Below, piece by piece: positions 11,551 to 29,433 of a DNA stretch of 32,000 nucleotides; position 1 is the stretch's first letter, and every line of letters starts with the position of its first letter. The notes beneath the pieces are model-generated. The model did no database searches, was not told where the DNA came from, and saw only the letters and a program-made list of their open reading frames with translations. The DNA comes from Mycolicibacterium smegmatis. GTDB taxonomy: Bacteria > Actinomycetota > Actinomycetes > Mycobacteriales > Mycobacteriaceae. The stretch is from the NCBI RefSeq assembly GCF_001457595.1, contig NZ_LN831039.1, positions 1,110,001 through 1,142,000 on the forward strand, in the 5' to 3' direction. The position numbers were made by a program, and so were the translations under genes.

Positions 11551-11994
11551 ATGATCCCGATTCCCCAGGACGATGCAAGCCGGCAACGCATGATCCGTGA
11601 GGTCGAGGCGAGTGTCTCCGACTTCCGCGGGGTGGCAGGTTTCTCGGTCCTGCGCACCGAACGTCCTGGCAGCGCGATCGGCGCGCACGGCGGTATCCAG
11701 GACGATGTGCAACTCGACCGGGTCCTGACCCGCATGCGCATGCAGCCCGTCGGGGCGTTCGGCGGGAAACTCGTCATCGTCTGCACCAGGCCCGAGCGGC
11801 AGTGGCGTATCGCCCGCCTGTCCGGGATCCGCGGCGTCGCACCGCAGTTCGTCGACGATCGGGTCTTCACCGACGAGCAGACCGCCCAGGCCGAGATCCT
11901 CAAGATGCGGTTCACGCAGTACCCCGCCGAGGACGGGATGCCCGAACACTGCACGCCCGCATGGAAATCGCGAGGGGAGAACTGGGGCGCATGA
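11551..11994 (+). CDS. Hypothetical 147-aa protein, candidate small subunit of the DMFase-like enzyme
   Basis: GC3 is about 77 % in the first 30 codons. The stop overlaps the start of the large-subunit gene (ATGA at 11991-11994). Size and position match the small (about 15 kDa) subunit of two-subunit N,N-dimethylformamidases. I recognised no motif. Confidence 0.55.
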   Translation: MIPIPQDDASRQRMIREVEASVSDFRGVAGFSVLRTERPGSAIGAHGGIQDDVQLDRVLTRMRMQPVGAFGGKLVIVCTRPERQWRIARLSGIRGVAPQFVDDRVFTDEQTAQAEILKMRFTQYPAEDGMPEHCTPAWKSRGENWGA

Positions 11995-14435: not shown

Positions 14436-14460
14436 CGGTCGGGCGACGCAGGCCGGCCAC

Positions 14461-15219
14461 ATGACCGCGGGCCGCGACCTGCTGCTCACCCCGGTGTCCT
14501 CAGGACGTCACCCGTCGGCGGACAGCACCGACTTGACCGGCACGTGGGTGTGCGTCGGCCTGGCCGAGCAACTCACCGAGGTGGGCGCGATCCTGCCCGC
14601 GACCATCGGCCAACACGCCGCGCATGTGCGACTGGCCGAGGCCGGTCCGGTGGCGGCCCTGAACGCGCGCCCGTTCGGCGGATGCCTGTCGGTGCCCGTG
14701 CACTGCGGCAGCACACGCAACGTCAGATGTCCGCACCGTGCGTGTGCCTTCAGCGAGGACGGACCGGTCCTCGACGACCGGACCGACCCGCGGGGCGTCG
14801 CACGTTCGGAGTTCGTCGGTCGCCGCACGGTCAACATCCCTCTGGCGCAGTGGGGTTCGCTGCTGTTCGTCAACGTCACGATGCGTACACCGCCGCCGCT
14901 GCCGGTGCCCGACGTGACGTGGGACGGCGTGGCGCTGGTCGGCACCGGCTCGGACACCGTCGCAGGCAACTGGCTGCAGGCACCGTCACGCGCGGCCGAA
15001 CAGGTCACCGCCGCCTGCCCCTGGGCCCGCACGGTCACGATCGCACCCAACGTCGTGGTGATCCGCGACGACCGCGACGTTCTCGCCGTGTTCAGCAGGC
15101 CCGCGGGCAAATACCGCAGCACCATGACGTGGGCCGTGTTCGCAAACTCGAAGGGCAGCGGTGCGTTGGGCGCCGCGGCCGCGCGAGTGTGGGGGAGCTC
15201 ACGCGGACCCGTGGCGTGA
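14461..15219 (+). CDS. Rieske-oxygenase-alpha-like protein with non-canonical Cys/His cluster (possibly truncated or degenerate)
   Basis: WVCVGLAEQL...VAALNARPFGGCLSVPVHCGSTRNVRCPHRACAFSEDG aligns to a Rieske domain, but the CxH...CxxH pattern is broken. AGNWLQ resembles the NWK motif of RHO alpha subunits. Only 252 aa. Good GC3. Confidence 0.55.
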   Translation: MTAGRDLLLTPVSSGRHPSADSTDLTGTWVCVGLAEQLTEVGAILPATIGQHAAHVRLAEAGPVAALNARPFGGCLSVPVHCGSTRNVRCPHRACAFSEDGPVLDDRTDPRGVARSEFVGRRTVNIPLAQWGSLLFVNVTMRTPPPLPVPDVTWDGVALVGTGSDTVAGNWLQAPSRAAEQVTAACPWARTVTIAPNVVVIRDDRDVLAVFSRPAGKYRSTMTWAVFANSKGSGALGAAAARVWGSSRGPVA

Positions 15220-15257
15220 TTTACGGCATGGAAACAGGCTCTGAACCTGGTTGACCC
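15220..15257 (+). promoter_or_regulatory. Candidate GlnR box (a-n6-b-n6-a-n6-b)
   Basis: The sequence is TTTAC-ggcatg-GAAAC-aggctc-TGAAC-ctggtt-GACCC. The first a/b pair fits gTnAc-n6-GaAAc and the whole site fits AC-n9-AC-n9-AC. It lies 49-86 nt upstream of the LuxR-family gene. Confidence 0.4.
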
Positions 15258-15305
15258 GCACCCGTAGTCAACTTGTCCACAAGCACTTGACCGGAGGGGG
15301 GCGAG

Positions 15306-16049
15306 ATGGCTGGACAGATGACGTTGATGAACGAGATGCGTGACATCGCCTCGATCGCCGCCGACATGGCCTCGACCGACACCTCGGTGCGGGTGCGTGG
15401 CGCCATTGACTTCCTGCGGCTCGAGGCACGGTGCGACACGTTCCTGCTCGCGTACAAGACCCCGGGTGCCAAGGGTTTCGACCTGATCACCTCGGTCGGA
15501 TACTCCGAACCCGTGGCGCGGTATCTGACCTCCGACATCCAGGCAAAGCCCGAGTTCACCAAGCAGTTCGCCGACCAGACGCGGGTCTGGGACTGGGACG
15601 ACGTCCCCGAGTTCTACGACTCCTACAGCGGTGCCGAGGTTCTGCGCCCGGAAGGGTTCACCAACGGCTTCCTCATGGTCCTGCACGACGGTGCGGGCGA
15701 CGTGGTCGGGATGTGCCAGGGCAACATGGAGCGCCCCGACTTCACGCCCCGCAACCGCTCAACGGTGGAAGCCGTGCGCCCGTTGTTCACCAAGTACGTG
15801 ACGAAGCTACGGACACGGGCCCGCGCGAGGTTGACACCGCGAGAGCAGGAGATCCTGGCGCTGCTGCGCAGCGGCCTGTCGAACGCCGAGATCAGCGATC
15901 GGCTGTACCTGTCGCCGCGAACCGTGAGCACCCACGTCGAACGCGTGCTGCGCAAGCTCGGCGTGGCCAACCGCGTGGCCGCGGCGGTGCAGGCCACCGA
16001 ACTCGAACTCCTCGACGCCGGACGTGATGCGGTGACGCCGCTGCCGTAG
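15306..16049 (+). CDS. LuxR-family one-component transcriptional regulator (N-terminal ligand-sensor-like domain, no receiver domain)
   Basis: The C-terminal HTH is LTPREQEILALLRSGLSNAEISDRLYLSPRTVSTHVERVLRKLGVANRVAA. ATG 15306 is preceded by GGAGGGGGG. The N-terminal ~170 aa has no phospho-acceptor motif. Confidence 0.9.
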   Translation: MAGQMTLMNEMRDIASIAADMASTDTSVRVRGAIDFLRLEARCDTFLLAYKTPGAKGFDLITSVGYSEPVARYLTSDIQAKPEFTKQFADQTRVWDWDDVPEFYDSYSGAEVLRPEGFTNGFLMVLHDGAGDVVGMCQGNMERPDFTPRNRSTVEAVRPLFTKYVTKLRTRARARLTPREQEILALLRSGLSNAEISDRLYLSPRTVSTHVERVLRKLGVANRVAAAVQATELELLDAGRDAVTPLP

Positions 16050-16092: not shown

Positions 16093-16113
16093 TTCACGCT
16101 GTTTGATGAAAAG

Positions 16114-16141
16114 TTCACCAGCGCAATCAATTACGTAGAAT
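16114..16141 (+). promoter_or_regulatory. Candidate SigA-type promoter for the ABC/amidase/urease operon
   Basis: TTCACC, a 16-nt spacer, then TAGAAT (fits TANNNT). It sits inside the most AT-rich stretch of the window (about 16100-16200). Confidence 0.3.
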
Positions 16142-16279
16142 GACGTATTCCCTCCGTGCCCGCTGGGTCATAACGTCAAACATGAATTCGTTGATGTCAT
16201 CGCTCGTCGTGGCGTGATGGCGGATGGACGATCTTCTCCAGTGATCCGGAGGACCCACGATGAAGTTCTGCGAGTACAC

Positions 16280-17884
16280 ATGCGGCAGCCGGTGACACGT
16301 CTTCACGCCACGCTCCTGGGCGTGATCGTCGCGATCGCGGCTCTGGCCGGCTGTTCGCGAGGCCCGGTGCAGACCGGCAATGTCTTCGTCATCGCGATCG
16401 AGTCCGAGGCCGACATCCTCGACCCACAGGTCGCCGGCGGCTGGGTGAGCTGGCGGATCAACCGGCAGATCTTCGAACCGCTTGTCGACGAGGATCTTTC
16501 GATGCCGTCGAGCGAGGCGACGGTGCCGCCGCTGCGGCCCGGTCTGGCCGAGTCGTGGGATATCAGCGACGACGGCCTGGAGTACACGTTCCACATCCGC
16601 AAAGACGTGAAGTTCCACGACGGCACGCCGCTGGACGCCCAGGCCGTCGAGTACAACGTCCGGCGCATGTGGGACAAGTCGTCGCCCATGTACAACGCAC
16701 GTGCCGCAGGCCAGACCGGCTTCGTCTGGAAGTTCCTCGATTCGGTGCAGACGGTCGATGATCACACCCTGAAAATGCGTCTGAGCCAGCCGTTCTCGGA
16801 GTTCCTGCGTATGCTCGCCCAGGGCGGCAACGGTTCCACGGCGATCATGAGCCCCACCGCGCTGCAGACCTACGGCGAAGACGTCGCCGACCATCCGGTG
16901 GGCACCGGGCCGTTCAAGTTCAAAGAACGCATCCGCGGCGAACGCATCGACCTGGTGCGTAACGACGACTACTGGGGCAAGGTGCCCTACATCGACGGTG
17001 TCGTCTTCCGTCCGCTGCCCGACCCGTCGGCCCGCACCGCGGCGCTGCGCTCAGGTGACGTCGACATGATCGCGGTGCCCAATCCCGACAGCATCGACAA
17101 CCTGGTCTCCGAGGGTTATCAACTCTCGGAGGGCACCCCGCCGCACACGTGGTACCTGTCGTTCAACATGAAGGACCGCTACACCTCGATTCCCGAGGTG
17201 CGCCAGGCGATCAACCTCGCGGTGGACCGCGAGGGCATGGCCAAGGACATGCTGCGCGGTTCGGTCACCCCGGCATGGGGCGTGCAGGCGCTGTCGGCGG
17301 GCGGATACGTCGAACGCAAGGACATCTACCAGCGCAACCTCGACAAGGCCCGTCAACTGCTGGCGTCGGTCGGGTTGGCCGACGGGTTCCAGACCACGCT
17401 GATCACCTCGACCGACGGATCCGGGCAGATCATGCCCGCCCAGATGGCCGAGTTCATCCAGCAGAATCTCGCCGAGATCGGCATCAAGGTGAACATCCAG
17501 ACCCAGGAATGGATCTCGTATCTGGGTGTGTGGGCACGCGGCATGCAGGACGGCGTCGGTATGGCCCAGATGTCCTGGGGCATGACCAGCCCGTACTGGC
17601 TCTACATCGTGACGTCGTCGGAACTGCAGGCGCCCAACGGTCCCAACGTCGGGTACTACTCCAGTCCGGCGCTGGACAAGGCGATGAACAACGCGATCAC
17701 CGCGCTCGACCCGCAGGAGGCCGAACAGTGGTGGCGCCGGGCCAACAACATCGTCAGCGACGAGGCCGCGCTGGTTCCCATCGTCAACGACAAGGCGCCG
17801 TACGTGCTGGCGCCGTATGTGTCGGGGTTCATCTCGGCGAGTGAGGAATGGTACGACCTCACCTCAGTGAAACTCGAACAGTGA
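16280..17884 (+). CDS. ABC transporter substrate-binding lipoprotein, family 5 (peptide/nickel/opine type)
   Basis: The lipoprotein signal is MRQPVTRLHATLLGVIVAIAALAGC. The body is typical of SBP family 5 (FHIRKDVKFHDGTPLDAQAV..., DDYWG). The track ORF starts at 16214. Confidence 0.9.
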   Translation: MRQPVTRLHATLLGVIVAIAALAGCSRGPVQTGNVFVIAIESEADILDPQVAGGWVSWRINRQIFEPLVDEDLSMPSSEATVPPLRPGLAESWDISDDGLEYTFHIRKDVKFHDGTPLDAQAVEYNVRRMWDKSSPMYNARAAGQTGFVWKFLDSVQTVDDHTLKMRLSQPFSEFLRMLAQGGNGSTAIMSPTALQTYGEDVADHPVGTGPFKFKERIRGERIDLVRNDDYWGKVPYIDGVVFRPLPDPSARTAALRSGDVDMIAVPNPDSIDNLVSEGYQLSEGTPPHTWYLSFNMKDRYTSIPEVRQAINLAVDREGMAKDMLRGSVTPAWGVQALSAGGYVERKDIYQRNLDKARQLLASVGLADGFQTTLITSTDGSGQIMPAQMAEFIQQNLAEIGIKVNIQTQEWISYLGVWARGMQDGVGMAQMSWGMTSPYWLYIVTSSELQAPNGPNVGYYSSPALDKAMNNAITALDPQEAEQWWRRANNIVSDEAALVPIVNDKAPYVLAPYVSGFISASEEWYDLTSVKLEQ

Positions 17885-17894
17885 GGCTCAACCG

Positions 17895-18854
17895 ATGACC
17901 GCAACCATCAGAAATCGTTTACTGTCAACACTTCTCGTCCTGTTCGGGGTCAGCCTCATCGTGTTCCTGCTGCTGCAGCTGGTGCCCGGTGACCCAGCCG
18001 TCACCATCCTCGGTTCCGGGGCAACGGCCGAGGCGGTCGCCGCCCTGCGCACCGAGTTGGGCCTCGACCGCGCACTGCCGATCCAGTTCTTCGACTACCT
18101 CGGCGGCCTCGTGCGCGGCGATCTGGGCCGGTCGCTGACCGTCAACGCCCCGGTCGCCGACATCATGCTGCCGCGGTTCGCCAACACGATCATCCTCACG
18201 GTCGCCGCACTGATCCTGTGCATCGTGGTCGCCGTCCCGCTCGGCGTCATCGCGGCGCACAAGCAGTACAGCATTTTCGACCGCGTCTCGATGATGGTCT
18301 CGCTGGCCGGCGCGAGCGTGCCGGTGTACTGGTTCGGCCTGCTGCTGATCGGTGCGTTCGCCGTCACGCTGGGCTGGCTGCCCACCTCGGGTATGTACAA
18401 CCCGCGTTTCCCCGGTGGATTCACGGATCTGCTGGCGCACCTTGTGCTTCCCGCGATCGCCGCGGCGCTCGTGCCGCTCGCGGTGATCGCGCGGATGACA
18501 CGCAGCGTGATGATCGACATCCTGCAGCAGGACTACATCCGCACGCTGCGCGCCTCGGGCCTGTCGACGAACTCGGTGCTGTGGCGCCACGCCCTGCGAA
18601 ACGCGTTGCCGCCCATCGTCAACATCATCGGCCTGCAGGTCGGGTACCTGCTCGGCGGTGTGGTGTTCGTCGAGGTCGTCTTCGGCTGGCCAGGTCTCGG
18701 CCAGCAGCTCTACACGTCGATCACCCAGCGTGACATCCCGGTGGTGCAGGCCGGTGTGCTGTTCATCGCGCTGGCGTTCGTGATCATCAACCTGCTCGCC
18801 GACGGTGCGGTCGGACTGCTGGATCCGCGTACGAGAAGGAAGGTCGGAGCATGA
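17895..18854 (+). CDS. ABC transporter permease (DppB/NikB-like)
   Basis: The N-terminus is LLVLFGVSLIVFLLLQLVPGDP. The EAA-type loop is DYIRTLRASGLS. Confidence 0.93.
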   Translation: MTATIRNRLLSTLLVLFGVSLIVFLLLQLVPGDPAVTILGSGATAEAVAALRTELGLDRALPIQFFDYLGGLVRGDLGRSLTVNAPVADIMLPRFANTIILTVAALILCIVVAVPLGVIAAHKQYSIFDRVSMMVSLAGASVPVYWFGLLLIGAFAVTLGWLPTSGMYNPRFPGGFTDLLAHLVLPAIAAALVPLAVIARMTRSVMIDILQQDYIRTLRASGLSTNSVLWRHALRNALPPIVNIIGLQVGYLLGGVVFVEVVFGWPGLGQQLYTSITQRDIPVVQAGVLFIALAFVIINLLADGAVGLLDPRTRRKVGA

Positions 18855-19786
18855 GCACACTGGTCGCGGGACGCACGTTCCCGTGGGTCCGCAGATCCTC
18901 GGCCGGCGGACCCGTCCAGGTCGACACCGACACCCCGAAACCGCAGTGGCGCCTGGCCGTCCGGGCGTTCAGCCGCGACCGGATGGCCGTGGTGTCGCTC
19001 GTCGTGCTGGTGATCGTGACGCTCGCGGCGGTTTTCGCGCCGTTGCTCACGCCCTACAGCCCCACCGCGGGTGACCCGGTGGACCGGCTCGCAGGCATCG
19101 GCACCGAAGGCCACCTGCTGGGCCTCGACGGGCAGGGACGTGACATCTGGACCCGGCTGCTCTACGGCGGGCGCAACTCGCTCATGACCGCGGTGGTGCC
19201 GGTGTTCGTGGTGTTCCCGCTGGCGCTGATGATCGGCCTGTTCGCGGGATACCGGCGCAGCCGCGCAGGTGAGGTGCTCATGCGCATCCTCGACGTGCTG
19301 TTCGCGTTCCCGCTGGTGCTGCTGGCCATCGCGCTGTCGGCCGTGCTCGGCGCGGGGCTCGGCAACGTGATGCTCGCGATCGGCATCACGCTCATCCCCT
19401 ACATGGCCCGTGTCGCCTACACCGCGACGGTGTCCGAGGCGAGCAAGGACTACATCGAGGCCGCACGCGCCTACGGCGCCAACCCGCTGCTGCTGATGTT
19501 CCGCGAACTCATGCCCAACGTCGTCGTACAGCTGCTCGTGTACTCGACCACGTTGTGCGGCCTGATGATCGTGGTGGCCTCGGGTCTGAGCTTCCTGGGC
19601 GTCGGCGTCATCCCGCCCACACCGGACTGGGGCATCATGACCGCCGACGGCAAGAACGTCCTGCTGGAGGGCATCTACCACGTCGCGACCATTCCCGGCC
19701 TGCTCATCCTCGTCGTCTCGCTGGCGTTCAACCTCGTCGGCGACGGCATCCGCGACGCCCTCGACCCACGGAAGCAGACCAACTGA
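18851..19786 (+). CDS. ABC transporter permease (DppC/NikC-like)
   Basis: ATGA overlap with the upstream gene. Motifs include LLGLDGQGRDIWTRLLYG and DYIEAARAYGAN. Confidence 0.93.
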   Translation: MSTLVAGRTFPWVRRSSAGGPVQVDTDTPKPQWRLAVRAFSRDRMAVVSLVVLVIVTLAAVFAPLLTPYSPTAGDPVDRLAGIGTEGHLLGLDGQGRDIWTRLLYGGRNSLMTAVVPVFVVFPLALMIGLFAGYRRSRAGEVLMRILDVLFAFPLVLLAIALSAVLGAGLGNVMLAIGITLIPYMARVAYTATVSEASKDYIEAARAYGANPLLLMFRELMPNVVVQLLVYSTTLCGLMIVVASGLSFLGVGVIPPTPDWGIMTADGKNVLLEGIYHVATIPGLLILVVSLAFNLVGDGIRDALDPRKQTN

Positions 19787-20664
19787 TGACACACGCCCTT
19801 GACGTCAAGAACCTGTCCGTGGACTTCCACACCGACAACGGCGTGGTCCACGCGGTCAAGAACGCCGACATCTGTGTGCGCGAAGGCGGAATCCTCGGCC
19901 TGGTCGGCGAATCCGGCTCCGGGAAATCCGTCACGTCGCTGGCGGTGCTGCGCCTGTTGGCCGGCCGGGCCCGGATCACCAACGGAGAGATCCTGTTCCG
20001 GGGCGAGAACCTGCTGGACAAGACCGAGAAACAGATGCGCGCCATCCGCGGCTCACACATCGGGATGGTCTCGCAGAACGCGCTGTCGGCGCTCGACCCG
20101 TCGTTCACCATAGGTGCACAGCTCGTCGAGGTGATCCGGTTGCACCAGGGCGTCGACAAGTCCACCGCGCGGGCCAAGGCGCTGGAGGCACTCGAACTCG
20201 TGGCGCTGCCGGATCCCAAGCGCCGCATGAAGTCCTACCCCCACGAGTTGTCGGGCGGGCAGCGTCAGCGCGTCGTGATCGCGATCGCGCTGTCGTGCCG
20301 GCCCGAACTGCTGCTCGCCGACGAGCCCACCACCGCGCTCGACGCGACCGTGCAGAAGCAGATCCTCGACCTGCTGCTGGACATCAACAAGGAACTGGGT
20401 ACGTCGATCCTGTTGGTCACACACGATTTCGGAGTCGTCGCACACGTGTGCACCGACGTCACGGTCATGCGCCGCGGCGACGTGCTGGAGTCCGGTACCG
20501 CCGATCAGGTTCTCAACAACCCGCAACACCCCTACACCCAGGGACTCATGCGGGCCGTGCCGCGGCTGCACCTCGATGCCACCACGCGCGCCATCCCGCG
20601 CGCGGACCGGCGGTTGTTCGAGTTCCACGGCGACACCACCAAGGAGGCCGCCAATGTCGCGTGA
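19786..20664 (+). CDS. ABC transporter ATP-binding protein (DppD/NikD-like)
   Basis: Walker A is GESGSGKS, the signature is LSGGQRQR and Walker B is LLLADEPTTALD. TGATG junction with the upstream gene. Confidence 0.95.
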   Translation: MTHALDVKNLSVDFHTDNGVVHAVKNADICVREGGILGLVGESGSGKSVTSLAVLRLLAGRARITNGEILFRGENLLDKTEKQMRAIRGSHIGMVSQNALSALDPSFTIGAQLVEVIRLHQGVDKSTARAKALEALELVALPDPKRRMKSYPHELSGGQRQRVVIAIALSCRPELLLADEPTTALDATVQKQILDLLLDINKELGTSILLVTHDFGVVAHVCTDVTVMRRGDVLESGTADQVLNNPQHPYTQGLMRAVPRLHLDATTRAIPRADRRLFEFHGDTTKEAANVA

Positions 20665-21466
20665 AATCTTTGAACCGCTCATCTCGGTCACCGGCCTCAC
20701 CAAGGTGTTCACGGTCCGCGGTGAGGACGGCAAGCGCAGCGAGTTCACCGCGGTCGACGGCGTGAGCTTCGACATCCAGCGCGGCGAGACGTTCGGGCTG
20801 ATCGGCGAATCCGGGTCGGGCAAGACCACGACGGGCCGCATGGTGCTGGGCCTGGAGACGCCGACGTCCGGATCGATCACGTTCGAGGGCAACGAACTGG
20901 TGGGCCTGTCCGATCTCGCGATGCGGCGCTACCGCCGCCACATCCAGATCGTCTTCCAGGACTCCGGGTCGGCCTTCAACCCGCGTCGCAGCGTCGGGGC
21001 GCAGATCTCCTATCCGCTCAAGCTGTTCCGTCTCGCGACACCGGAAGAGGCCCGCAAGAAGACCCTCGAGCTGCTCGAGCGCGTCGGCATGCTGCCCTCG
21101 CACTACGACCGTTACATCCACGAGTTCTCGGGAGGTCAGCGCCAGCGACTCGGTATCGCCCGCGCGCTGATCACCGACCCGGACTTCATCGTGCTCGACG
21201 AGCCGACGGCCGCGCTCGACGTCTCGGTGCAGGCGCAGATCCTCAACCTGCTCAAGGACCTTCAGCTCGAACGCAAACTCACGATGCTGTTGATCACCCA
21301 CAACCTGGCACTCGTCGAGCACATGTGTGAGCACGCCGGGGTGCTCGACCACGGCAGGCTCGTCGAATCCGGCCCGGTGGACCGGTTGCTCACCGAACCC
21401 GGAACCGAGATCACCCGCAAGCTCGTCGACGCCGTGCTCGAACCGGAATTGGAGACCGCGATATGA
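20654..21466 (+). CDS. ABC transporter ATP-binding protein (DppF/NikE-like)
   Basis: Motifs are GESGSGKTT, FSGGQRQR and FIVLDEPTAALD. 11-nt overlap with the upstream gene. Confidence 0.95.
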   Translation: MSREIFEPLISVTGLTKVFTVRGEDGKRSEFTAVDGVSFDIQRGETFGLIGESGSGKTTTGRMVLGLETPTSGSITFEGNELVGLSDLAMRRYRRHIQIVFQDSGSAFNPRRSVGAQISYPLKLFRLATPEEARKKTLELLERVGMLPSHYDRYIHEFSGGQRQRLGIARALITDPDFIVLDEPTAALDVSVQAQILNLLKDLQLERKLTMLLITHNLALVEHMCEHAGVLDHGRLVESGPVDRLLTEPGTEITRKLVDAVLEPELETAI

Positions 21467-22863
21467 CCGACTCGGCACTCGAACGGGCCACCGACACCGT
21501 CCGGCAGACCATCCCCCAGGTGCGGGCCCAACTCGACCGCGGCGAGATCACCCCGGTCGGCCTGGTGCGCCGCGCGTTGGCGCGCATCTCCCACGTCGAG
21601 GACAAGATCCAGGCGTTCGCGGCGGTGTTCGCCGACGAAGCACTCGCGGTGGCGCAGGAGAGCGCGCCGCAGGCCGGCCCGCTGTGGGGCATCCCGGTCG
21701 CCGTCAAGGACATCTACGACGTGGCCGGCTACCGCACCGGAAACGGATCCCGCGGTGCCCCAGAGCATCCCGCACTGCGCGACGCCGATGCCGTCCGGCG
21801 GCTGCGCGACGCGGGCGCCATCATCCTCGGCAAGGCCACCACGCACGAGTACGCCTACGGCGTCACCACGCCGCCGACGCGCAACCCGTGGTCGCTGGAC
21901 CGCATCCCCGGCGGTTCCAGCGGAGGCACCGGCGCGGCCATCGCGGCAGGCGTGGTCGCGGCCGGTCTGGGCACCGACACCGGCGGTTCGATCCGCATCC
22001 CGGCCGCATTGTGCGGCGTCACGGGCCACAAACCGACGTTCGGTCTGGTGAGCCGCAGCGGTGTCAGCGCACTGAGTTCCACGCTCGACCACACCGGGCC
22101 GCTGGGGCGCACGGTCGACGACACCGTCGCCCTGCTCGAGGTCATCGCCGGGCACGACCCGGCCGACCCGTACAGCTCGTCGGCGCCCGTGCCCGATTTC
22201 CGGGCCGAATTCGACCGGGGTTTGGCAGGTCTCACCATCGGCGTCGCCGAACCATATTTCTGCGACCGGCTCACCCCCGACGTCGCCGCGGCGTTCGAGG
22301 AGGCCATCCACACCCTCGAACGCGGCGGCGCCACCATCACCTCGGTGACGTTCACCGACGTCGACCTGTGCCCCCGCGTCGTCGACGTGGTGTGCGGTGT
22401 CGAGGCCGCGGCATGGCACGCCGCGCAGATCGGTATGGCACCCGAGAAATTCAGCCCAGAGGTGCGGGACGCGCTGCGCCTCGGCGCCTCCTACACCGGT
22501 GTGGAATACCTCGAGGCCCGTCGTGCCCGATGTGCGGTGATCGCCGGGATGAACGCCCTGTTCGACTCCGGTCCGGATCTGTTGATCTCACCCACCATCG
22601 CGATGACCGCGCCGCCGTACGGGTCGACACACGTCGATCTCGGCGGACGCACCGTCGGAGTGCTCGACGGGGTCAACGCACTGACCGTCCCGGCGAATGT
22701 GACCGGGATGCCCGCACTGACCGTGCCTGCCGGTTTCGGCAGTGACGGACTGCCGATCGGCCTACAGTTGATGGGCCGGCCGGGGGCGGACGCGACGGTG
22801 CTCGGCGCAGGCCGGGCCTTCGAGCGGATCGCCGGTTTCGTCGACTTCACCCCCAACCTCTGA
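21463..22863 (+). CDS. Amidase-signature (AS) family amidohydrolase 1
   Basis: ATGA overlap with the upstream gene. It has VAVKDIYDVAG (Lys) and the AS signature GGSSGGTGAAIAAGVVAAGLGTDTGGSIRIPAALCGVTGHKPTFG (Ser-cisSer). Confidence 0.9.
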   Translation: MTDSALERATDTVRQTIPQVRAQLDRGEITPVGLVRRALARISHVEDKIQAFAAVFADEALAVAQESAPQAGPLWGIPVAVKDIYDVAGYRTGNGSRGAPEHPALRDADAVRRLRDAGAIILGKATTHEYAYGVTTPPTRNPWSLDRIPGGSSGGTGAAIAAGVVAAGLGTDTGGSIRIPAALCGVTGHKPTFGLVSRSGVSALSSTLDHTGPLGRTVDDTVALLEVIAGHDPADPYSSSAPVPDFRAEFDRGLAGLTIGVAEPYFCDRLTPDVAAAFEEAIHTLERGGATITSVTFTDVDLCPRVVDVVCGVEAAAWHAAQIGMAPEKFSPEVRDALRLGASYTGVEYLEARRARCAVIAGMNALFDSGPDLLISPTIAMTAPPYGSTHVDLGGRTVGVLDGVNALTVPANVTGMPALTVPAGFGSDGLPIGLQLMGRPGADATVLGAGRAFERIAGFVDFTPNL

Positions 22864-22877
22864 GAGCGAGGAGAACC

Positions 22878-23069
22878 ATGTCCGATTTCATGCCATCGCA
22901 GGAACAGATTTCCGCGGCGTTCGAGTTCGCGGGCCTGCCCGTGCCCGCCGAGCGGCTCGCGGAGAACCACACCACGTATGCCGAGACACTGGCCCTGATC
23001 CGCAAGGCCTCCACACCCGGGCTGGGGGAGACCGTCCCGGCACTGGGTTTCAAGGCGCACTGGGACTGA
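22878..23069 (+). CDS. GatC/AtzG-like microprotein (candidate small subunit of an AS amidase)
   Basis: 63 aa. ATG is preceded by GAGGAGAA. It sits immediately upstream of an AS amidase, as atzG does for atzE. The pattern ISAAFEFAGLPVPAERLAEN...ETVPALGF resembles GatC/AtzG (DUF4089-type) proteins, from memory. Confidence 0.6.
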   Translation: MSDFMPSQEQISAAFEFAGLPVPAERLAENHTTYAETLALIRKASTPGLGETVPALGFKAHWD

Positions 23070-23106
23070 CGGCACCCGAATCTGCAGAGCTGAAAGGAAC
23101 ATCCGG

Positions 23107-24513
23107 ATGGAACTCTACGAACTGCCACTGATCGAGGTCGCCGAGAAGATCCGCACCAAGGAGGTCTCACCGGTCGAGGTCGCCGAGTCGTCGCTCGCGC
23201 GCCTGGAGGAGGTCGAACCGCTCCTGACCGCGTTCGTCACCACCACGCCCGAACTCGCCCTCGAGCAGGCCAAGGCCGCCGAAAAAGAGATCGCCGACGG
23301 CAAGTACCGCGGTCCGCTGCACGGAATTCCGCTGGGCGTCAAGGATCTCTACGACACCGCGGGTATCAGGACCACGTCGAGCTCGGCGCAGCGCGCCGAC
23401 CACGTCCCCGACGCCGACTGTGTTTCGGTGGCCAAGCTGTACGACGCGGGCATGATCCTGGTCGGCAAGACCCATACACACGAATTCGCCTACGGTGCAA
23501 CAACGCCCACCACCGGCAACCCGTGGGCGCCGGACCGCACCCCGGGCGGATCGAGCGGCGGTTCGGGTGCCGCGGTCGCCGCGGGCGTCGTGCACGTCGC
23601 ACTCGGTAGCGATACAGGCGGATCCATCCGCATCCCTGCCGCGCTGTGCGGCACCGTGGGCCTCAAGCCGACGTACGGGCGCGCGTCGCGCGTCGGTGTC
23701 GCCTCGCTGTCGTGGTCCCTGGACCATGTGGGCCCGCTGAGCCGCAACGTGACCGACGCGGCCCTGGTGATGCAGGCCATGTCGGGATATGACCGCCGCG
23801 ATCCCGGGACGGCCAACGTGCCCGTGCCCGACATGGTTTCGGGTATCGACGCCGGTGTGGCGGGGAAAAAGATCGGCATCCCGGTCAACTACTACACCGA
23901 CCGGGTCGCCCCCGAGGCCGCCGAGGCAGCGAAGGCGGCCGCGGCCACCTTCGAGAAACTCGGCGCCCAACTGGTCGAGGTCGAGATCCCGATGGCCGAG
24001 CACATCGTGCCGACCGAATGGGCGATCATGATGCCCGAGGCGACCGCGTATCACATGGACTACCTGCGCAATTCGCCCGAAAAGTTCACCGACGAGGTCC
24101 GCACGCTGCTCGAGGTCGGTGCCGCCGAACCCGCGGTCGACTACGTCAACGCGATGCGTCTGCGCACCCTGATCCAGGCCGCGTGGAACGAGATGTTCAC
24201 GGGCATCGACGTGCTGCTGGCCCCCACCGTCGTCGCGCCCGCGACCCTGCGCTCCGACCCGTTCGTGCGATGGGAGGACGGCACCGTCGAGGCCGCGACC
24301 GCCGCGTATGTGCGGCTGTCGGCGCCGGCCAACGTCACGGGACTGCCGTCGCTCTCGGTACCCGCGGCGTTCACGGCCGACGGCCTGCCGCTGGGCGTGC
24401 AGATCCTGGGCAAGCCGTTCGCCGAGCCCGAGATCCTGACGTTCGGCTACGCCTTGGAGCAGAACACCGATACGGTCGGCCGGATCGCGCCGGTCCTGGA
24501 GAAGGTGGGCTGA
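23107..24513 (+). CDS. Amidase-signature family amidohydrolase 2 (GatA/AtzE-like)
   Basis: It has LGVKDLYDTAG and GGSSGGSGAAVAAGVVHVALGSDTGGSIRIPAALCGTVGLKPTYG. ATG is preceded by GAAAGGAA. Confidence 0.9.
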   Translation: MELYELPLIEVAEKIRTKEVSPVEVAESSLARLEEVEPLLTAFVTTTPELALEQAKAAEKEIADGKYRGPLHGIPLGVKDLYDTAGIRTTSSSAQRADHVPDADCVSVAKLYDAGMILVGKTHTHEFAYGATTPTTGNPWAPDRTPGGSSGGSGAAVAAGVVHVALGSDTGGSIRIPAALCGTVGLKPTYGRASRVGVASLSWSLDHVGPLSRNVTDAALVMQAMSGYDRRDPGTANVPVPDMVSGIDAGVAGKKIGIPVNYYTDRVAPEAAEAAKAAAATFEKLGAQLVEVEIPMAEHIVPTEWAIMMPEATAYHMDYLRNSPEKFTDEVRTLLEVGAAEPAVDYVNAMRLRTLIQAAWNEMFTGIDVLLAPTVVAPATLRSDPFVRWEDGTVEAATAAYVRLSAPANVTGLPSLSVPAAFTADGLPLGVQILGKPFAEPEILTFGYALEQNTDTVGRIAPVLEKVG

Positions 24514-24514
24514 C

Positions 24515-24973
24515 ATGGCGCTCGGCACCGGCCTGCGGATCCTCGACACCATCGTCGGCTGGAGCACCGATCAGCCGATCGCAGGCCGGTTGCACGAGCT
24601 GCGCCACCGCCACGCCGTTGAGTACGTGCACCTCGATGCGCACGACCTGGACCGCAAGCGTCTGCGCTTGACATCGGACGCCGGCACCGAGTACGCGATC
24701 GCACTGTCGCGCGACGTCACGCTCGCCGACGGCGCGGTGCTGCTCCTCGACGACGATCGTGCGGTGGTCGTGCGCGCAGGCGCACCGCAGACGCTGACGC
24801 TGCGCGCCGTCGACACCGCGGCGGCCCTGCGTCTCGGGTTCCTCGCGGGGCACCTGCACTGGAAGGTCGATCAGCACGACGACACCCTCGTGGTGCGTCT
24901 GGAGGCCCCGCGCGACGACTACACCGCGCGCATCGCCGACCTGCTGGCGAGCGGCCGGGTCCAGATCACATGA
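24515..24973 (+). CDS. ureE: Urease accessory protein UreE-like (no His-rich tail)
   Basis: Starts 1 nt after the amidase stop. DRKRLRLTSDAGTEYAIALSRDVTLADGAVLL and LGFLAGHLHWKV resemble the UreE N-domain and its GNRH-type motif. Confidence 0.7.
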   Translation: MALGTGLRILDTIVGWSTDQPIAGRLHELRHRHAVEYVHLDAHDLDRKRLRLTSDAGTEYAIALSRDVTLADGAVLLLDDDRAVVVRAGAPQTLTLRAVDTAAALRLGFLAGHLHWKVDQHDDTLVVRLEAPRDDYTARIADLLASGRVQIT

Positions 24974-25632
24974 CCGATCCGGGCCAGCTGATCGCGGCGA
25001 TGCGGTTCGGCGACAGCGCCTTTCCCTCGGGAGGATTCGCGTTCTCGTCGGGTCTGGAGGGCGCGCACCGCGACGGTCTGGTACACGACGAACGCGACGT
25101 CGCCGTGTTCACCGCCGAACAGTTGTGCGGCCGGTGGCACCGCGGCGACCGCGTGCTGCTGCGCATGGCGTGGACGCACGACGATCCCGGCGACGTCGAC
25201 GCGCTCGCCGAGGCGGTCACCACCATGTCCGTGCTGCGTGAGGCGTCCCGACGTGCGGGCGCCGCGACGCTGTCGACGTTCGCCGCGATCACGACCGCCG
25301 ACCACCTGACCCGCTATCGCACCCGGGTGCTCGCCGGCGACGCCCCGGGACACCTCCCGATCGCGCAGGCGCTGAGCTTCCGCGCGGCCGGGCTGACGCT
25401 GCCGACCGCCGAGGCCGTCGCGGCGTGGCAGGTGGTATCGGGCATCACCAGCGCTGCCCTGCGCCTGGGGATCTGCGGACACCTGGGTGCGCAACGCATC
25501 CTGGGCGACCTCACGGCGCCGATGCTGGATGTGCTCGACCGCGAACCACCCGCAGTGCCCGCCACTTTCACCGCCTACGCCGACATCGCCGCGCAGCGCC
25601 GCCGTGATGGCGTGCGGCTGTTCGCCAGTTGA
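24970..25632 (+). CDS. ureF: Urease accessory protein UreF
   Basis: ATGA overlap with ureE. LIAAMRFGDSAFPSGGFAFSSGLE is the UreF N-terminal signature. Confidence 0.85.
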   Translation: MTDPGQLIAAMRFGDSAFPSGGFAFSSGLEGAHRDGLVHDERDVAVFTAEQLCGRWHRGDRVLLRMAWTHDDPGDVDALAEAVTTMSVLREASRRAGAATLSTFAAITTADHLTRYRTRVLAGDAPGHLPIAQALSFRAAGLTLPTAEAVAAWQVVSGITSAALRLGICGHLGAQRILGDLTAPMLDVLDREPPAVPATFTAYADIAAQRRRDGVRLFAS

Positions 25633-25642
25633 AGGAGATCAT

Positions 25643-26299
25643 GTGAACCTCACGCCCACCGAACTCGAACGCCTCACGGTGTTCACCGCCGCCGAGATGG
25701 CGCGACGCAATCTGCGCGAGGGGGTTCTGCTGAGCCATCCCGAGGCCGTCGCGCTGCTCACCGACGAGGTCATGCTGGCCGCGCGCAAGAACCTGGCGTA
25801 CGACGAGGTGGTCGACATGGCCGCGAACCTGCTGCAGGCCAAGGACTGTGAGCCCGGTGTGCCCGACCTGGTGCGCATGGTGATGATCGACGCCCCGTTC
25901 CCCGACGGCACCAAGCTCGTCGCGCTGATCGACCCGATCACCCGGGCCGAGGACGACATCCGGCCGGGGGAGATCATCGTCGGTGACCAACCCGTCGAGC
26001 TGTTCCCTGGCGTCGAGCGCATCACGCTCACCGTGGTCAACCGCGGTGACCGGGACATCCAGGTGCGCAGTCAATCCCATTTCTACGAGACCAACCCCGC
26101 GCTGGAGTTCGACCGTCGCGCGGCATGGGGGTACAAGCTCGACATCGCCTCGGGCGGCGGTGTCCGGTTCGAACCCGGCATCCCGGTCCAGGTCAGCCTT
26201 GTCCCGATGGGCGGTGAGCGCGTGATCCAGGGCTTCTCCGGGCTGGTCAACGGCCCGCTCGACGGTGCCGACCAACTCGCCGAGCAGAAAGGCGCCTGA
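25643..26299 (+). CDS. ureAB: Urease gamma-beta fusion subunit
   Basis: GTG 25643 follows GAAGGAGA. The gamma part is LTPTELERLTVFTAAEMARRNLREGVLLSHPEAVALL...FPDGTKLV. The beta part is PGEIIVGD...NRGDRDIQVRSQSHFYETNPALEFDR...RFEPG. Both lie in one 218-aa ORF. Confidence 0.9.
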   Translation: MNLTPTELERLTVFTAAEMARRNLREGVLLSHPEAVALLTDEVMLAARKNLAYDEVVDMAANLLQAKDCEPGVPDLVRMVMIDAPFPDGTKLVALIDPITRAEDDIRPGEIIVGDQPVELFPGVERITLTVVNRGDRDIQVRSQSHFYETNPALEFDRRAAWGYKLDIASGGGVRFEPGIPVQVSLVPMGGERVIQGFSGLVNGPLDGADQLAEQKGA

Positions 26300-26300
26300 C

Positions 26301-28007
26301 GTGACGACCATCGACCGCCGCTCGTATGCGCGCATGTTCGGGCCCACCAAGGGTGACCGGATCCGGCTCGCCGATTCGGATCTGTTCGTCGAGGTCGAGT
26401 ACGACCACACCGTGCCGGGTTACGAGTTGCTCAGCGGTGCAGGAAAATCCGTGCGCGACGGCGAGGGGTACCGGCCATCGTCCAAACCGTCCGACGGCGC
26501 GCTCGACTACGTCATCATGAACGCCGTCGTGATCGACGCTGTCGCCGGGATCATCAAGTGCGACATCGGTATCCGCGACGGGCGCATCGTCGGCATCGGC
26601 AAGGCGGGCAACCCGGACACCATGCCGGGGGTCACCGAAAGCATGGTCGTCGGCAGCGCCACCACGCCGATCCCGGCCGAGGGCATGATCGTCACGGCGG
26701 GTGCCATCGAGACGCACGCGCACCTGATCTCGCCGCAGCAGACCGAACACGCGTTGTCGACGGGCACCACCACGCTCATCGGCGGTTCACTGGGCCCGTC
26801 GTTCGAGGTCGCGACCGGCGGCCCGCGCAACCTCGGCATGTTCCTCAAGGCCGGTGACTACACGCCCATGAACTACGTGCCGTTCGGGCGGGGTTCGTCG
26901 GATCCGGCCGCGGTGCTGGAGATGGTGGCCGCAGGCGCGGGCGCGGTCAAGATCCACGAGGACTTCGGCGCCTCGCCCGACATCATCGACAAGACGTTGC
27001 AGGCCGCGGATTCCGCAGATTTCGCGGTGCATCTGCACACCGATTCGATCAACGAGTTCGGGTTCTCCGAGATCACCATGTTGACGATCGGCGACCGGAC
27101 CATCCACCTCTATCACGTCGAGGGTGCGGGCGGCGGGCACGCACCCGACCTGATCCGGTGCGTGAGCTTCGACAACGTCATCCCGGGCACCACCAACCCC
27201 ACCAACCCGTACACGTTGGGCGGTCTCGACGAAGGTGTGCCGATGACCATGGCGGCGCACCTGATGAACTGGGAGTCGCCCGAGGACATCGCGTTCGCCG
27301 AGGCGCGGATCCGCCCGCAGACCATGGTGGCCGAGGATCTCCTGCACGACATGGGTGCCATCTCGATCTTCGGCAGCGACACCCAGGGCATGGGGCGAGT
27401 CGCCGAGAACATCGCCAACTGCTGGCAATTGGCCGCGGTGATGAAACAGCGTGTCGGGCGCCTGCCGGAGGAGAAGACCGCCGCGGCCGACAACGAACGC
27501 GTCAAGCGCTACATCGCGAAACTGACCATCAACCCGGCCATCTCGGTCGGCGCCGACGATCACATCGGTTCGGTCGAGGTGGGCAAGGTCGCCGACCTGG
27601 TGATCTGGAAACCCGCGTTCTTCGGCGTCAAACCACAGGTGGTGCTCAAGAACGGCTACATCGCGTGGGCCGCGCTCGGCGACGCGGCCGGGTCGATCTC
27701 GTCGTCCGAACCGATCATCCAGCGCCCCAACTGGGCCGCCTTGGGCGACGCGGCCGCCGACGGCGGATTCGTGTTCATGTCCTCGCTCGCCATCGACGCC
27801 GGGGTGCCCGAACGCCTCGGGCTGCGCAAGCATGTACTGCCCATCAAGTCGGTGCGCTCGCTGCGCAAGAAGGACATGGTGCGCAACGACGCCCTGCCGC
27901 ACGTCGAGGTCGATCCGCGCACCTTCGACGTGCGGGCCGACGGGGTACTGCTCACCGCCGAACCCGCTGTCAGCGTGCCGTTTTCGCGGAAGTTCCTGCT
28001 GCGATGA
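26301..28007 (+). CDS. ureC: Urease alpha (catalytic) subunit
   Basis: GTG 26301. [25 protein letters not shown] is the typical N-terminus. The active-site set is present: [15 protein letters not shown] (carbamylated Lys), [22 protein letters not shown] and [11 protein letters not shown]. Confidence 0.95.
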
Positions 28008-28621
28008 CCACCGCACTCAAGGCAGCACGCATCGGTATCGGCGGTCCGGTGGGCTCGGGCAAGACCGCGCTGGTCGAGGCGCTGCTCGCCGGTTTCGCGC
28101 GGCGGGGTCGCAGCGTGTCGGTGATCACCAACGACCTCGTCACCACCGAGGACGCCGAACGGGTCCGTCGTTCGGGACTGATCGATCCGCGGCGCGTACG
28201 TGCGGTCGAGGCCGGGGGATGCCCGCACACCGTGATCCGTGAGGATCCGTCGCTCAACATGGCCGCGGCCGACGCGCTCGAAGCCGAATTCCCCGACACC
28301 GAGATGATCCTGCTGGAATCCGGCGGCGACAACCTGGCGTCGACGTTCTCGCGGGACCTGGTGGACTACTGGCTCTTCGTGATCGACGTCGCAGGCGGAG
28401 ACGACATCCCACGCAAACGCGGACCCGGCGTGCTGCGCTGCGACCTGCTGGTGATCAACAAGGTCGACCTCGCACCGCACGTCGGCGTCGATCTCGACCT
28501 GATGCGCCGCGAGGCCGACGAAGTCCGCAGCGGCAGAACGGTTGTTGCGATCAGCGCCCGCAACGGGCACGGCATCGACGAGTTGATGGACGTGCTCGAG
28601 CGCGAAGTGCTGTTCGTGTGA
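28004..28621 (+). CDS. ureG: Urease accessory GTPase UreG
   Basis: ATGA overlap with ureC. The P-loop is [11 protein letters not shown], the Ni-binding motif is [11 protein letters not shown], and NKVD is present. Confidence 0.95.
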
Positions 28622-29433
28622 AGCTCGCCGAACGCACGGCGGCCGATCTGCGGTTCGCCCGCGCCGGCGCCCACACGGTGCTGACCCGGCGCCGTCATCG
28701 GTGGCCGTTCGTGATCGGCCGCGTCTTCGCCGACCCGCAGGACCCCGGCCTCGGCACGCTCACCCTGCAGAACGCGGCGGGCACCGTCATCCCCGGCGAC
28801 GTGATCCGCCAGCGCATCGAGGTGGTCGACGGCGGGCGGGCCGCGGTCAACGGGCAGGGGGCCACGCTGATCAGCGGTGTTCCCGGCGGTGACGCGTCGG
28901 CCGAGGAGACCGAGTTGTACGTCGACGCCCACAGTTGGCTGCGGTTCGATCCCGCGCCACGCATCCTCACCGCCCACGCCCGTCATCGCCAGCGCACCGA
29001 GGTGTGCGTCGCACACCGCGGCTGCGCCGTCGTCGTCGACGCCGTGGTGCTGCACCCCGACCTCGACGCGGCGACCTTCGGCAGCATCGAATCCACCGTC
29101 ACCGTCCGCTCGCCCGGCGGCGCACTGCTGGCGATGGACGCACAGGTCTTGGACGCCCCACCCGTGACGGGCCGCTTCACCGCGTTCGGCACGGTCTACT
29201 TCGTCGGGGCGGGCTTCACCGGGGGCCACCATGAGGGCCCGACCGATCCACCCGGCGTCTACACCGCGGTCACCGAACTGCCCAACGGCGCCGGCTGCGC
29301 CGTACGCATCGCCGCCGCGGACGGCGGAACCCTGCGCACCTACCTTCGCCTGCTCTCCGCCGAAACGGCATTCCAGCGGGCGTCCACTCGCACTTTTACT
29401 GACGGAATGCCGTTTCGGCGGAGTCAGGTGTGA
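28618..29433 (+). CDS. ureD: Urease accessory protein UreD/UreH
   Basis: GTGA overlap with ureG. Position, about 270 aa length and general UreD-like sequence support the call. The last ~26 codons are encoded by the hairpin repeat element. Confidence 0.75.
29355..29423. repeat. Hairpin repeat element, copy B (perfect 20-bp stem)
   Basis: CTCCGCCGAAACGGCATTCC (29355-29374) is the exact reverse complement of GGAATGCCGTTTCGGCGGAG (29404-29423). The 29-nt loop is AGCGGGCGTCCACTCGCACTTTTACTGAC. Confidence 0.85.

Follow-up and report, generated by a model that had tools for sequence, protein, structure and literature searches.

Why should Mycolicibacterium smegmatis, which has a separate canonical urease (MSMEG_3623-3627), keep a second complete urease operon directly downstream of an ATP-binding cassette (ABC) importer and two amidases? 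The operon lies in a 32,000-nucleotide window of its chromosome (contig NZ_LN831039.1 of assembly GCF_001457595.1, positions 1,110,001 to 1,142,000 of the forward strand; coordinates below are those of the window unless marked as genome coordinates). Recomputed open reading frames (ORFs), starts and stops give 14 genes on the + strand between 16280 and 29433, which correspond to MSMEG_1084-1096 of M. smegmatis mc2 155 or a near-identical strain and whose ureEFABCGD portion has already been named the second urease of this species in the literature. We consider it an evenly balanced proposition that this cluster is a nitrogen-limitation-induced system that scavenges an amide which contains urea or collapses to it. 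The genes are as follows (scores in bits, for NCBIfam models given against the model cutoff).

16280..17884, + strand: MSMEG_1084, lipoprotein of the SBP_bac_5 family and substrate-binding protein (SBP) of the importer (Pfam 312 bits; lipobox LAGC)
17895..19786, + strand: MSMEG_1085 and MSMEG_1086, two permeases with a 4-nucleotide overlap (Pfam BPD_transp_1, with BPD_transp_1_N in one and OppC_N in the other)
19786..21466, + strand: two ABC ATPase genes with an 11-nucleotide overlap (Pfam ABC_tran in both, oligo_HPY in the first)
21463..22863, + strand: amidase 1, MSMEG_1088, annotated as 'gatA' (Pfam Amidase 371 bits)
22878..23069, + strand: MSMEG_1089, a 63-residue microprotein and truncated GatC homologue, with its own Shine-Dalgarno sequence and at least 44 homologues
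23107..24513, + strand: amidase 2, MSMEG_1090, AtzE/GatA-like (Pfam Amidase 398 bits)
24515..25632, + strand: ureE (N-terminal domain only, no His-rich tail) and ureF (Pfam UreE_N and UreF; NF009752 190 against 162)
25643..28007, + strand: fused gamma/beta and alpha urease subunits (NF009671 287 against 243; TIGR01792 705 against 680)
28004..29433, + strand: ureG (P-loop GPVGSGKT, CPH motif) and ureD (TIGR00101 235 against 204; Pfam UreD)

Read in order, these are an SBP_bac_5 lipoprotein, two permeases, two ATPases, an amidase of the amidase signature (AS) family, a 63-residue ORF, a second AS amidase, UreE, UreF, a fused gamma/beta subunit, UreC, UreG and UreD, and the Pfam and NCBIfam matches bear out the 14-gene content given in a preliminary description of this DNA that was made from its letters alone. 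The spacers from the SBP gene to ureD are 10, -4, -1, -11, -4, 14, 37, 1, -4, 10, 1, -4 and -4 nucleotides; every overlap and short gap listed in that description came out correct when ORFs and spacers were recomputed, and to its list we add the 14 and 37 nucleotides that flank the microprotein gene and the 10 nucleotides before the fused gamma/beta gene, ure(AB). Published genome coordinates equal window coordinates plus 1131438 according to the supplementary gene tables of two M. smegmatis transcriptome papers (MSMEG_1084, genome 1147718 and window 16280; MSMEG_1089, 1154316 and 22878; MSMEG_1090, 1154545 and 23107; MSMEG_1093, 1157081 and 25643; MSMEG_1097, 1160901 and 29463). A megablast search of the amidase-urease half against PLSDB, which might have revealed a plasmid origin, returned no match.

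In the pathway that we propose, a LuxR-type protein encoded just upstream would activate a promoter about 100 nucleotides 5' of the SBP gene through the sequence ATACGTC-N4-GACGTAT, and the Dpp/Gsi-type ABC importer would take up the substrate. Amidase 1, and amidase 2 in complex with the GatC-derived microprotein (as AtzE is with AtzG), might then each cleave a terminal amide or ureido group and release ammonia, leaving a skeleton that would either be urea or be an N-carboxyurea (allophanate or 1,3-dicarboxyurea) which loses CO2 spontaneously to give urea. The co-encoded Ni-urease, served by its own UreEFGD maturation set, would finally free the last two nitrogens. Triuret, biuret, carboxybiuret and acylureas fit a scheme of two terminal deamidations followed by urea, and the best-fitting substrates would be acylureas and polyureides (biuret, triuret, 1-carboxybiuret, oxalurate and malonurate types), none of which is singled out; the urea-forming step and the identity of the substrate are for now pure inference on our part.

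An argument that the importer, amidases and urease belong together comes from other genomes. We assembled 67 loci from a genome scan with the microprotein family, from the context of microprotein and SBP homologues and from a metagenome scan with SBP orthologues, and mapped them by tblastn. The order LuxR-importer-amidase 1-microprotein-amidase 2-ureEF(AB)CGD recurs in about 20 of them, from Mycobacterium, Mycolicibacterium (wolinskyi, vaccae, litorale), Rhodococcus yunnanensis and Rhodococcoides kyotonense, and the LuxR gene lies directly 5' of the SBP gene in all of these same-order loci whose sequence reaches that far. Moreover, the same parts are found in at least five other arrangements among Actinobacteria, including Kineococcus, Dietzia and metagenome contigs.

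Some mycobacteria (three loci): microprotein-amidase 2-urease, with no importer
Some mycobacteria: microprotein-amidase 2 alone
Kineococcus: two microprotein-amidase pairs divergent from importer-ureEF(AB)CGD, the transporter genes running straight into ureE
Dietzia: ureDGC(AB)FE-luxR divergent from importer-amidase-microprotein-amidase-amidase, with three amidases
Contig L046: importer-amidase-microprotein-amidase 2, with amidase 2 overlapping ure(AB) directly
Contig L042: importer-amidase-ureEF(AB)C, with one different AS amidase between importer and ureE
Amycolatopsis, Pseudonocardia and Sediminivirga: importer-amidase-microprotein-amidase, with no adjacent urease

A urease has therefore become attached to the importer-amidase core more than once and in more than one way, a pattern that points to functional coupling and not to chance, and the worry that the linkage seen in M. 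smegmatis might not extend to related genomes is removed by the roughly 20 same-order loci together with the other arrangements. That the importer and the amidases stay together where no urease adjoins them suggests in turn that the importer serves the amidases and not the urease only.

With its SBP_bac_5 lipoprotein, two BPD_transp_1 permeases, two ATPases and oligo_HPY tail the importer is of the Dpp/Opp type of the PepT (peptide/opine/nickel) family. Among solved relatives of the SBP the glutathione binders GsiB and HbpA score highest, followed by DppA (188-149 bits for the three), and any NikA scores 124-101 bits. No NCBIfam equivalog cutoff is reached by the SBP or by the other importer proteins, and the nickel models all remain under theirs (NikA 191.6 against 393, Opp5A_nikA 150 against 600, Opp2B 311.5 against 350, NikB 243 against 447).

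Two observations on these importer genes stand apart from the question of substrate. MSMEG_1087 is labelled a single pseudogene in the published tables, and the sequence at this place consists of two intact ATPase genes with an 11-nucleotide overlap; relatives share this two-gene layout and overlap, and the 'pseudo' label appears to be an artefact of annotation. A conserved Shine-Dalgarno sequence, GGAGGA, lies 5' of the SBP gene (16247-16295) and is followed by an ATG at 16260. This ATG is out of frame with the SBP in M. smegmatis and opens an 11-codon ORF (MKFCEYTCGSR) that ends at 16295 and overlaps the annotated SBP start (16280); this annotated start lacks a Shine-Dalgarno sequence of its own. 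The equivalent ATG in relatives appears to be the in-frame SBP start (the frame was traced through in locus L007 only), so that the SBP gene may be translationally coupled to a short upstream ORF, or its N-terminus may have changed frame.

Both amidases are members of the AS family, with Pfam Amidase scores of 371 and 398 bits (cutoff 27) and the Lys/cis-Ser/Ser motifs in place: VAVKD (K82), GGSSGG and DTGGSIR are intact in amidase 1, and amidase 2 has LGVKD (its lysine read off the sequence), GGSSGG and DTGGSIR. They are paralogues of each other, 43% identical. The best NCBIfam model for both is the AtzE family, yet both fall below its cutoffs (NF006631, 316.5 for amidase 1 and 337.6 for amidase 2 against 461; TIGR02715, 293.6 and 329.8 against 425.75), and the GatA model TIGR00132 likewise gives only 290 and 321 against 481. 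GatA is among the top solved relatives of both. In the alignment of amidase 2 to Staphylococcus aureus GatA (PDB ID 2DF4_A), the positions of Arg358 and Asp425, which we take to be the glutamine-binding residues, are occupied by Leu and Val, and this replacement argues against a glutaminase. An AtzH (DUF3225/NTF2) partner gene is absent from the window and from the related loci. A 135-residue gene after amidase 2 in some mycobacteria was considered as a candidate AtzH and rejected, since it encodes a hydrophobic membrane protein that has no Pfam match and is not NTF2-like.

This conserved hydrophobic protein of about 135 residues, with no family match (genes at L003 11625-12032, L012 18823-19230 and L013 1812-2249), is encoded directly 3' of amidase 2 in the loci without urease genes; in L012, which does bear a urease, the gene stands about 2.2 kilobases 3' of ureD, past a gene on the opposite strand. 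The ureEF(AB)CGD block was probably gained or lost at some point in the interval from amidase 2 to this gene. The coding sequence of amidase 1 also contains a 17-nucleotide inverted repeat (22284-22330; 94% complementary, 13-nucleotide spacer).

In the loci examined the microprotein gene is always immediately 5' of an amidase 2 orthologue, and in M. smegmatis it ends 37 nucleotides before amidase 2, the position of an AtzG-like small partner. As a single sequence the microprotein matches nothing in Pfam, NCBIfam or PDB, and a narrow mycobacterial profile finds no match there either and reaches GatC with an hhalign probability of 4.5% only. When the family alignment was widened with members from Rhodococcoides/Rhodococcus, Dietzia, Sediminivirga, Amycolatopsis, Kineococcus and Pseudonocardia, hhalign aligned it to five PDB GatC sequences at 89% (E-value 2.2e-6), residues 6-55 corresponding to GatC 4-53, and a profile search of the whole PDB with the family returned GatC first (E-value 0.0099). 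The GatC/AtzG-like character proposed for this protein in the preliminary description is thus upheld, and by these profile matches it is to be read as a truncated GatC that lacks the C-terminal half. Sequence and profile searches detected no match to the AtzG chains in the PDB, and an AlphaFold2 model of the microprotein (mean predicted local distance difference test score 72.5) gave only meaningless Foldseek matches to the PDB, with E-values above 2.

Amidase 1 has no microprotein partner in M. smegmatis, and its counterpart has one in Pseudonocardia and Kineococcus. In these genera (Pseudonocardia, L030 15030-18202; Kineococcus, L026 6349-9789) each amidase is preceded by its own ORF of about 60 residues. 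The amidase pair would accordingly have come from a tandem duplication of a microprotein-amidase unit, the first microprotein having been lost in the mycobacterial lineage.

The urease itself is complete. Its alpha subunit scores over the equivalog cutoff for a Ni-urease and is accompanied by a full set of UreD, UreE, UreF and UreG. Compared with the Klebsiella aerogenes and Sporosarcina pasteurii enzymes, UreC keeps the metal ligands (HxH, the carbamylated Lys, His, His and Asp) and the catalytic flap His; GSDTQGMGR is present, the flap reads AAH, and only Cys319 to Ala and Ala363 to Gly differ (K. aerogenes numbering). The enzyme very probably hydrolyses urea. A homologue search with UreE returned only close mycobacterial relatives.

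Among the nearest known systems are those with AtzG-AtzE, in the atzDGEHF operon of Pseudomonas sp. ADP and the widespread proteobacterial atzG-atzE-atzH clusters, in which a GatC-related small gene is likewise found immediately 5' of a GatA-like AS amidase. The neighbours of the proteobacterial clusters include ABC transporters, additional amidases and allophanate hydrolase, so that an importer, amidases and an enzyme that finishes urea-family intermediates are common to both. Unlike them, the M. smegmatis amidases stay under the AtzE cutoffs, AtzH (DUF3225), AtzD and AtzF are missing, the terminal enzyme is a Ni-urease, two paralogous amidases share the locus with one microprotein, and the host belongs to the Actinobacteria. 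The spontaneous decay of 1,3-dicarboxyurea and allophanate to urea is a dead end in Pseudomonas sp. ADP, a strain unable to degrade urea; by analogy, it is plausible that the urease here takes the place of the allophanate hydrolase in the proteobacterial clusters. The triuret/biuret pathway of Herbaspirillum and nitrifiers (TrtA, TrtB, BiuH, AtzF) offers a second parallel, with its stepwise polyureide deamidation after ABC uptake and terminal mineralisation of allophanate or urea, although its enzymes are isochorismatase-like rather than AS proteins and it ends in AtzF, not in urease. Polyureide breakdown by the M. smegmatis cluster on the strength of this likeness would be speculation, and a literature search returned no report of M. 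smegmatis growth on biuret.

Linkage of ureases to transporters of nickel or urea is familiar, and the earlier statement that urease clusters usually stand alone is too strong. Transporter-linked urease operons (nickel: nik, ynt, cbi, ureMQO; urea: urtABCDE, ureI) resemble the present one in having a complete urease beside an ABC importer of the peptide/nickel family; they differ in that here two AS amidases and a GatC-like protein lie between, the order is ureE-F-(AB)-C-G-D with fused gamma/beta, and the importer travels with the amidases even where there is no urease.

The more specific proposal, an undescribed actinobacterial route for polyureides or acylureas that would combine an importer, two GatA-derived amidases (at least one of them stabilised by a vestigial GatC), collapse of an N-carboxyurea and a dedicated second urease, independently of AtzH and AtzF, is a tentative one that we think rather unlikely to hold in full. 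The preliminary description knew of no characterised pathway with this architecture, which is fair as far as the pathway goes, but the locus had been noticed: work on M. smegmatis has described both ureEFABCGD and the induction of the locus under nitrogen starvation, and published lists of genes that respond to such starvation include those of the importer and amidases, with MSMEG_1085 discussed there as a transporter of dipeptides. In the searchable literature we found no paper in which the importer is treated together with the GatCA-derived amidases and the urease as a single system, nor any test of a substrate. What would be new here, going by gene order and homology, is the joining of an AtzEG-like catabolic module to a urease operon.

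Should the coupling prove functional, it would represent a new nitrogen-scavenging pathway in soil Actinobacteria, and a second AtzEG-like amidase system, derived from GatCA and found outside the Proteobacteria, would acquire a physiological role. It would also provide a reason why M. smegmatis and its relatives possess ureEFABCGD as a second urease, and the nitrogen regulon of mycobacteria would gain a GlnR-to-LuxR cascade that has a defined operator. With a polyureide or acylurea as substrate, the pathway would matter for what becomes in soil of impurities in fertiliser and of the products of purine and pyrimidine oxidation. The locus is in a genetically tractable model organism, and each step is directly testable.

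Published expression data tie the cluster to nitrogen limitation, and the region upstream of the SBP gene holds the elements through which this might be brought about.

15231..15246, + strand: GlnR-box-like sequence GAAAC-N6-TGAAC, read off the sequence
15306..16049, + strand: MSMEG_1082, LuxR/GerE regulator (GerE helix-turn-helix, residues 175-228)
16131..16148, + strand: candidate palindromic operator ATACGTC-N4-GACGTAT (TTACGTA-GAAT-GACGTAT in the window), from the invariant columns of eight aligned LuxR-SBP intergenic regions
16171..16176, + strand: predicted -10 element TAACGT (TAnnnT; T, A and final T invariant in 8/8 species)
16198..16219, + strand: leader-RNA hairpin, 8-base-pair stem and 6-nucleotide loop, conserved and covarying

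Under nitrogen starvation MSMEG_1082 is induced 47.7-fold and MSMEG_1084 51.8-fold, with 6-19-fold for MSMEG_1085-1087 and about 5-fold for MSMEG_1088-1090 (PMC4222082). When wild type was compared with a glnR deletion, the ratios were 12.5 for MSMEG_1084, 11 for 1085, 10.4 for 1087, 8.0 for 1088, 3.0 for 1089, 3.3 for 1090 and 2.6 for ureC (PMC3662644). GlnR binds upstream of MSMEG_1082, whose expression is GlnR-dependent by a factor of 277 (chromatin immunoprecipitation sequencing peak 8; PMC3662644), and gel shifts showed no GlnR binding upstream of MSMEG_1084 or 1090 (PMC4222082); the cluster therefore depends on GlnR indirectly. The box GAAAC-N6-TGAAC is centred about 43 nucleotides 5' of the published MSMEG_1082 start (genome 1146719, window 15281) and lies 27 nucleotides 5' of peak 8 (genome 1146711-1146751, window 15273-15313; PMC3662644), and it is probably the GlnR site.

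The second step of the cascade would be the LuxR protein. The core of the palindrome, TACGT-N4-TGACG, is found a single time in each of 22 sequences (21 loci and the window), always 5' of the SBP gene, Sediminivirga included, and the palindrome centre is about 42 nucleotides 5' of the start site implied by the predicted -10, the geometry of a class II activator. We infer that the LuxR protein binds this palindrome and is a probable activator of MSMEG_1084-1096. The published map of 5' ends from nitrogen-replete cultures has no start at the predicted -10, as is expected of an induced promoter. The leader hairpin just downstream was scored in 16 sequences, where 89.8% of the cells were paired and 4/8 pairs showed compensatory changes; 0/500 shuffles reached its score and controls slid along the alignment gave 21-59% pairing. 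Rfam has no match in the window at the gathering threshold, nor in the leader at E-values up to 1. The hairpin could stabilise the 5' end of the transcript or be a regulatory element.

Are the 14 genes then transcribed as one? The preliminary description placed the only promoter in an AT-rich region at about 16100-16200, which does not hold, since a weak internal start has been published further down; the only strong hairpin does lie at the 3' end, as it stated.

22763..22775, + strand: weak internal promoter, -10 TACAGT at 22763-22768 and start at 22775 (genome 1154213; PMC6448022 supplement, primary and internal class, two datasets)
29355..29423, + strand: terminal stem-loop with a perfect 20-base-pair stem, inside the 3' end of ureD (z = -5.9; longest inverted repeat in the cluster)

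Between genome positions 1146719 and 1163274 the nitrogen-replete map has only two high-confidence starts, that of MSMEG_1082 and the weak one at 1154213 (PMC6448022). The latter falls inside the 3' end of amidase 1, 103 nucleotides before the microprotein gene. Its TACAGT is built on a CTA Leu codon that is missing from 14 related loci, so that the internal promoter looks specific to M. smegmatis and is not a conserved separator of blocks. CTA is a rare Leu codon in GC-rich genomes. No start site for the urease genes is present in the same nitrogen-replete map (PMC6448022), and urease transcripts presumably arise by read-through from upstream. A consensus scan for internal terminators found no more sites than in shuffled sequence, and the terminal stem-loop is likely a terminator or 3' stabiliser. 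RNA sequencing base counts are highest for MSMEG_1089 and 1090 and fall about ninefold at ureE.

Thus the single transcript of the preliminary description stands in part: no separate urease start is mapped and read-through is presumed, but a weak start precedes the microprotein gene, induction falls from 12.5-fold to 2.6-fold along the cluster, and basal RNA is highest at the microprotein and amidase 2. The picture that emerges is of one conserved unit with decaying read-through and a minor internal promoter, neither a uniform single transcript nor a set of independent blocks. Over the first 85 or so nucleotides of ureE a long imperfect hairpin (24517-24600; fold of 24440-24600, z = -2.6) coincides with the drop in counts between MSMEG_1090 and 1091, and it could be an attenuation or processing site. 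Downstream of the cluster, MSMEG_1097 is not conserved in relatives and has read counts about 30 times those of ureD.

Several points weigh against the proposed scavenging pathway. Characterised AtzE/GatA relatives release ammonia, not urea, so that urea formation leans on the assumed substrate class, and cluster-C SBPs usually bind peptide-sized ligands, into which range small polyureides fit poorly. Neither amidase reaches the cutoff of AtzE, its best-matching family, and AtzH is missing; microprotein-amidase 2 occurs alone in some mycobacteria, and the importer-amidase core occurs with no adjacent urease in Amycolatopsis, Pseudonocardia and Sediminivirga. The pairing of the LuxR protein with its putative operator is read from conservation and geometry. 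In continuous-culture RNA sequencing the amidase and urease genes respond weakly (1.4-2.2-fold for 7/9; ureG 5.0-fold and not significant), MSMEG_1090 alone being significant, and the urease activity that M. smegmatis does possess, which may come from either of its two ureases, was not raised after 30 min of starvation (PMC4222082).

Some of these same points speak for a different explanation, that the importer and amidases take ammonia from a peptide-like amide, the urease handles urea from elsewhere, for instance from purine breakdown, and the two are co-regulated neighbours that share no substrate and stand side by side only for their common usefulness when nitrogen is limiting. The solitary microprotein-amidase 2 pairs and the urease-free core in three genera fit this well, as do the ammonia-releasing AS amidases of the clade, the nearest solved relatives of the SBP, which bind glutathione or dipeptides, an induction of the urease much weaker than that of the importer, and a gene of the gamma-glutamyltranspeptidase family near one Pseudonocardia locus. 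Shared regulation alone, however, hardly explains why the urease is juxtaposed in at least six arrangements across several actinobacterial genera and unassigned contigs, why amidase and ure(AB), or the ATPase gene and ureE, overlap directly in some of them, or why the urease is nearly always ureEF(AB)CGD with gamma and beta fused in every case examined. Moreover, M. smegmatis already has MSMEG_3623-3627 as a separate urease. We regard shared regulation without a shared substrate as possible though somewhat unlikely.

An importer of nickel or a nickel chelate (NikABCDE type) that feeds the urease, with the amidases as passengers or processors of the nickel ligand, is improbable. Linkage of nickel transporters to ureases is well established, the Kineococcus transporter genes run straight into ureE, and nickel-type models are among the NCBIfam matches (NikA 192 bits; the nickel permease Opp2B 311.5 against 350). 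Every one of these models is under its cutoff, however, and the SBP scores GsiB, HbpA and DppA above any NikA. The transporter accompanies amidases in three genera with no adjacent urease, whereas microprotein-amidase 2-urease loci exist with no transporter, and AS amidases need no metal; the importer has its constant partner in the amidase pair, and this speaks against a role in nickel import alone.

Finally, a spare GatCA-type glutamine amidotransferase for tRNA-dependent Asn/Gln synthesis, as the 'gatA' label of MSMEG_1088 would have it and as the preliminary description named among the findings that would count against it, has a negligible chance of being correct, for although both amidases have GatA among their top solved relatives and the microprotein shares its ancestry with the N-terminal 50 or so residues of GatC (4-53 only, of a full length of about 95-100), the window has no GatB, both amidases are far from the GatA cutoff, the presumed glutamine-binding residues are replaced in amidase 2, and the genes are catabolic in context, induced by nitrogen starvation and set between an importer and a urease.

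Some neighbouring genes of the related clusters deserve mention beside the urea-yielding amide pathway that we favour. A solitary Peripla_BP_5/6 protein and a MarR regulator adjoin the importer-amidase cluster in Amycolatopsis (L027 8258-9852) and Pseudonocardia (L030 8167-9739); from its domain, the former might be an AmiC-like protein that senses amides or urea. One mycobacterial contig has an ANTAR response regulator followed by a Peripla_BP_6 gene 3' of the cluster (L005 18284-20210), and both sets of genes are possible alternative amide-sensing regulators. In the window itself, directly 5' of the LuxR gene (11802-15219), are MSMEG_1080, a DMFA2_C and Laminin_G_3 protein that resembles the large subunit of N,N-dimethylformamidase, and MSMEG_1081, of 252 residues and with no family match. 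Many mycobacterial loci keep this pair ahead of the LuxR gene; its dependence on GlnR is mild (4.4-fold and 2.5-fold), and it may be another amide-cleaving activity of the same nitrogen island.

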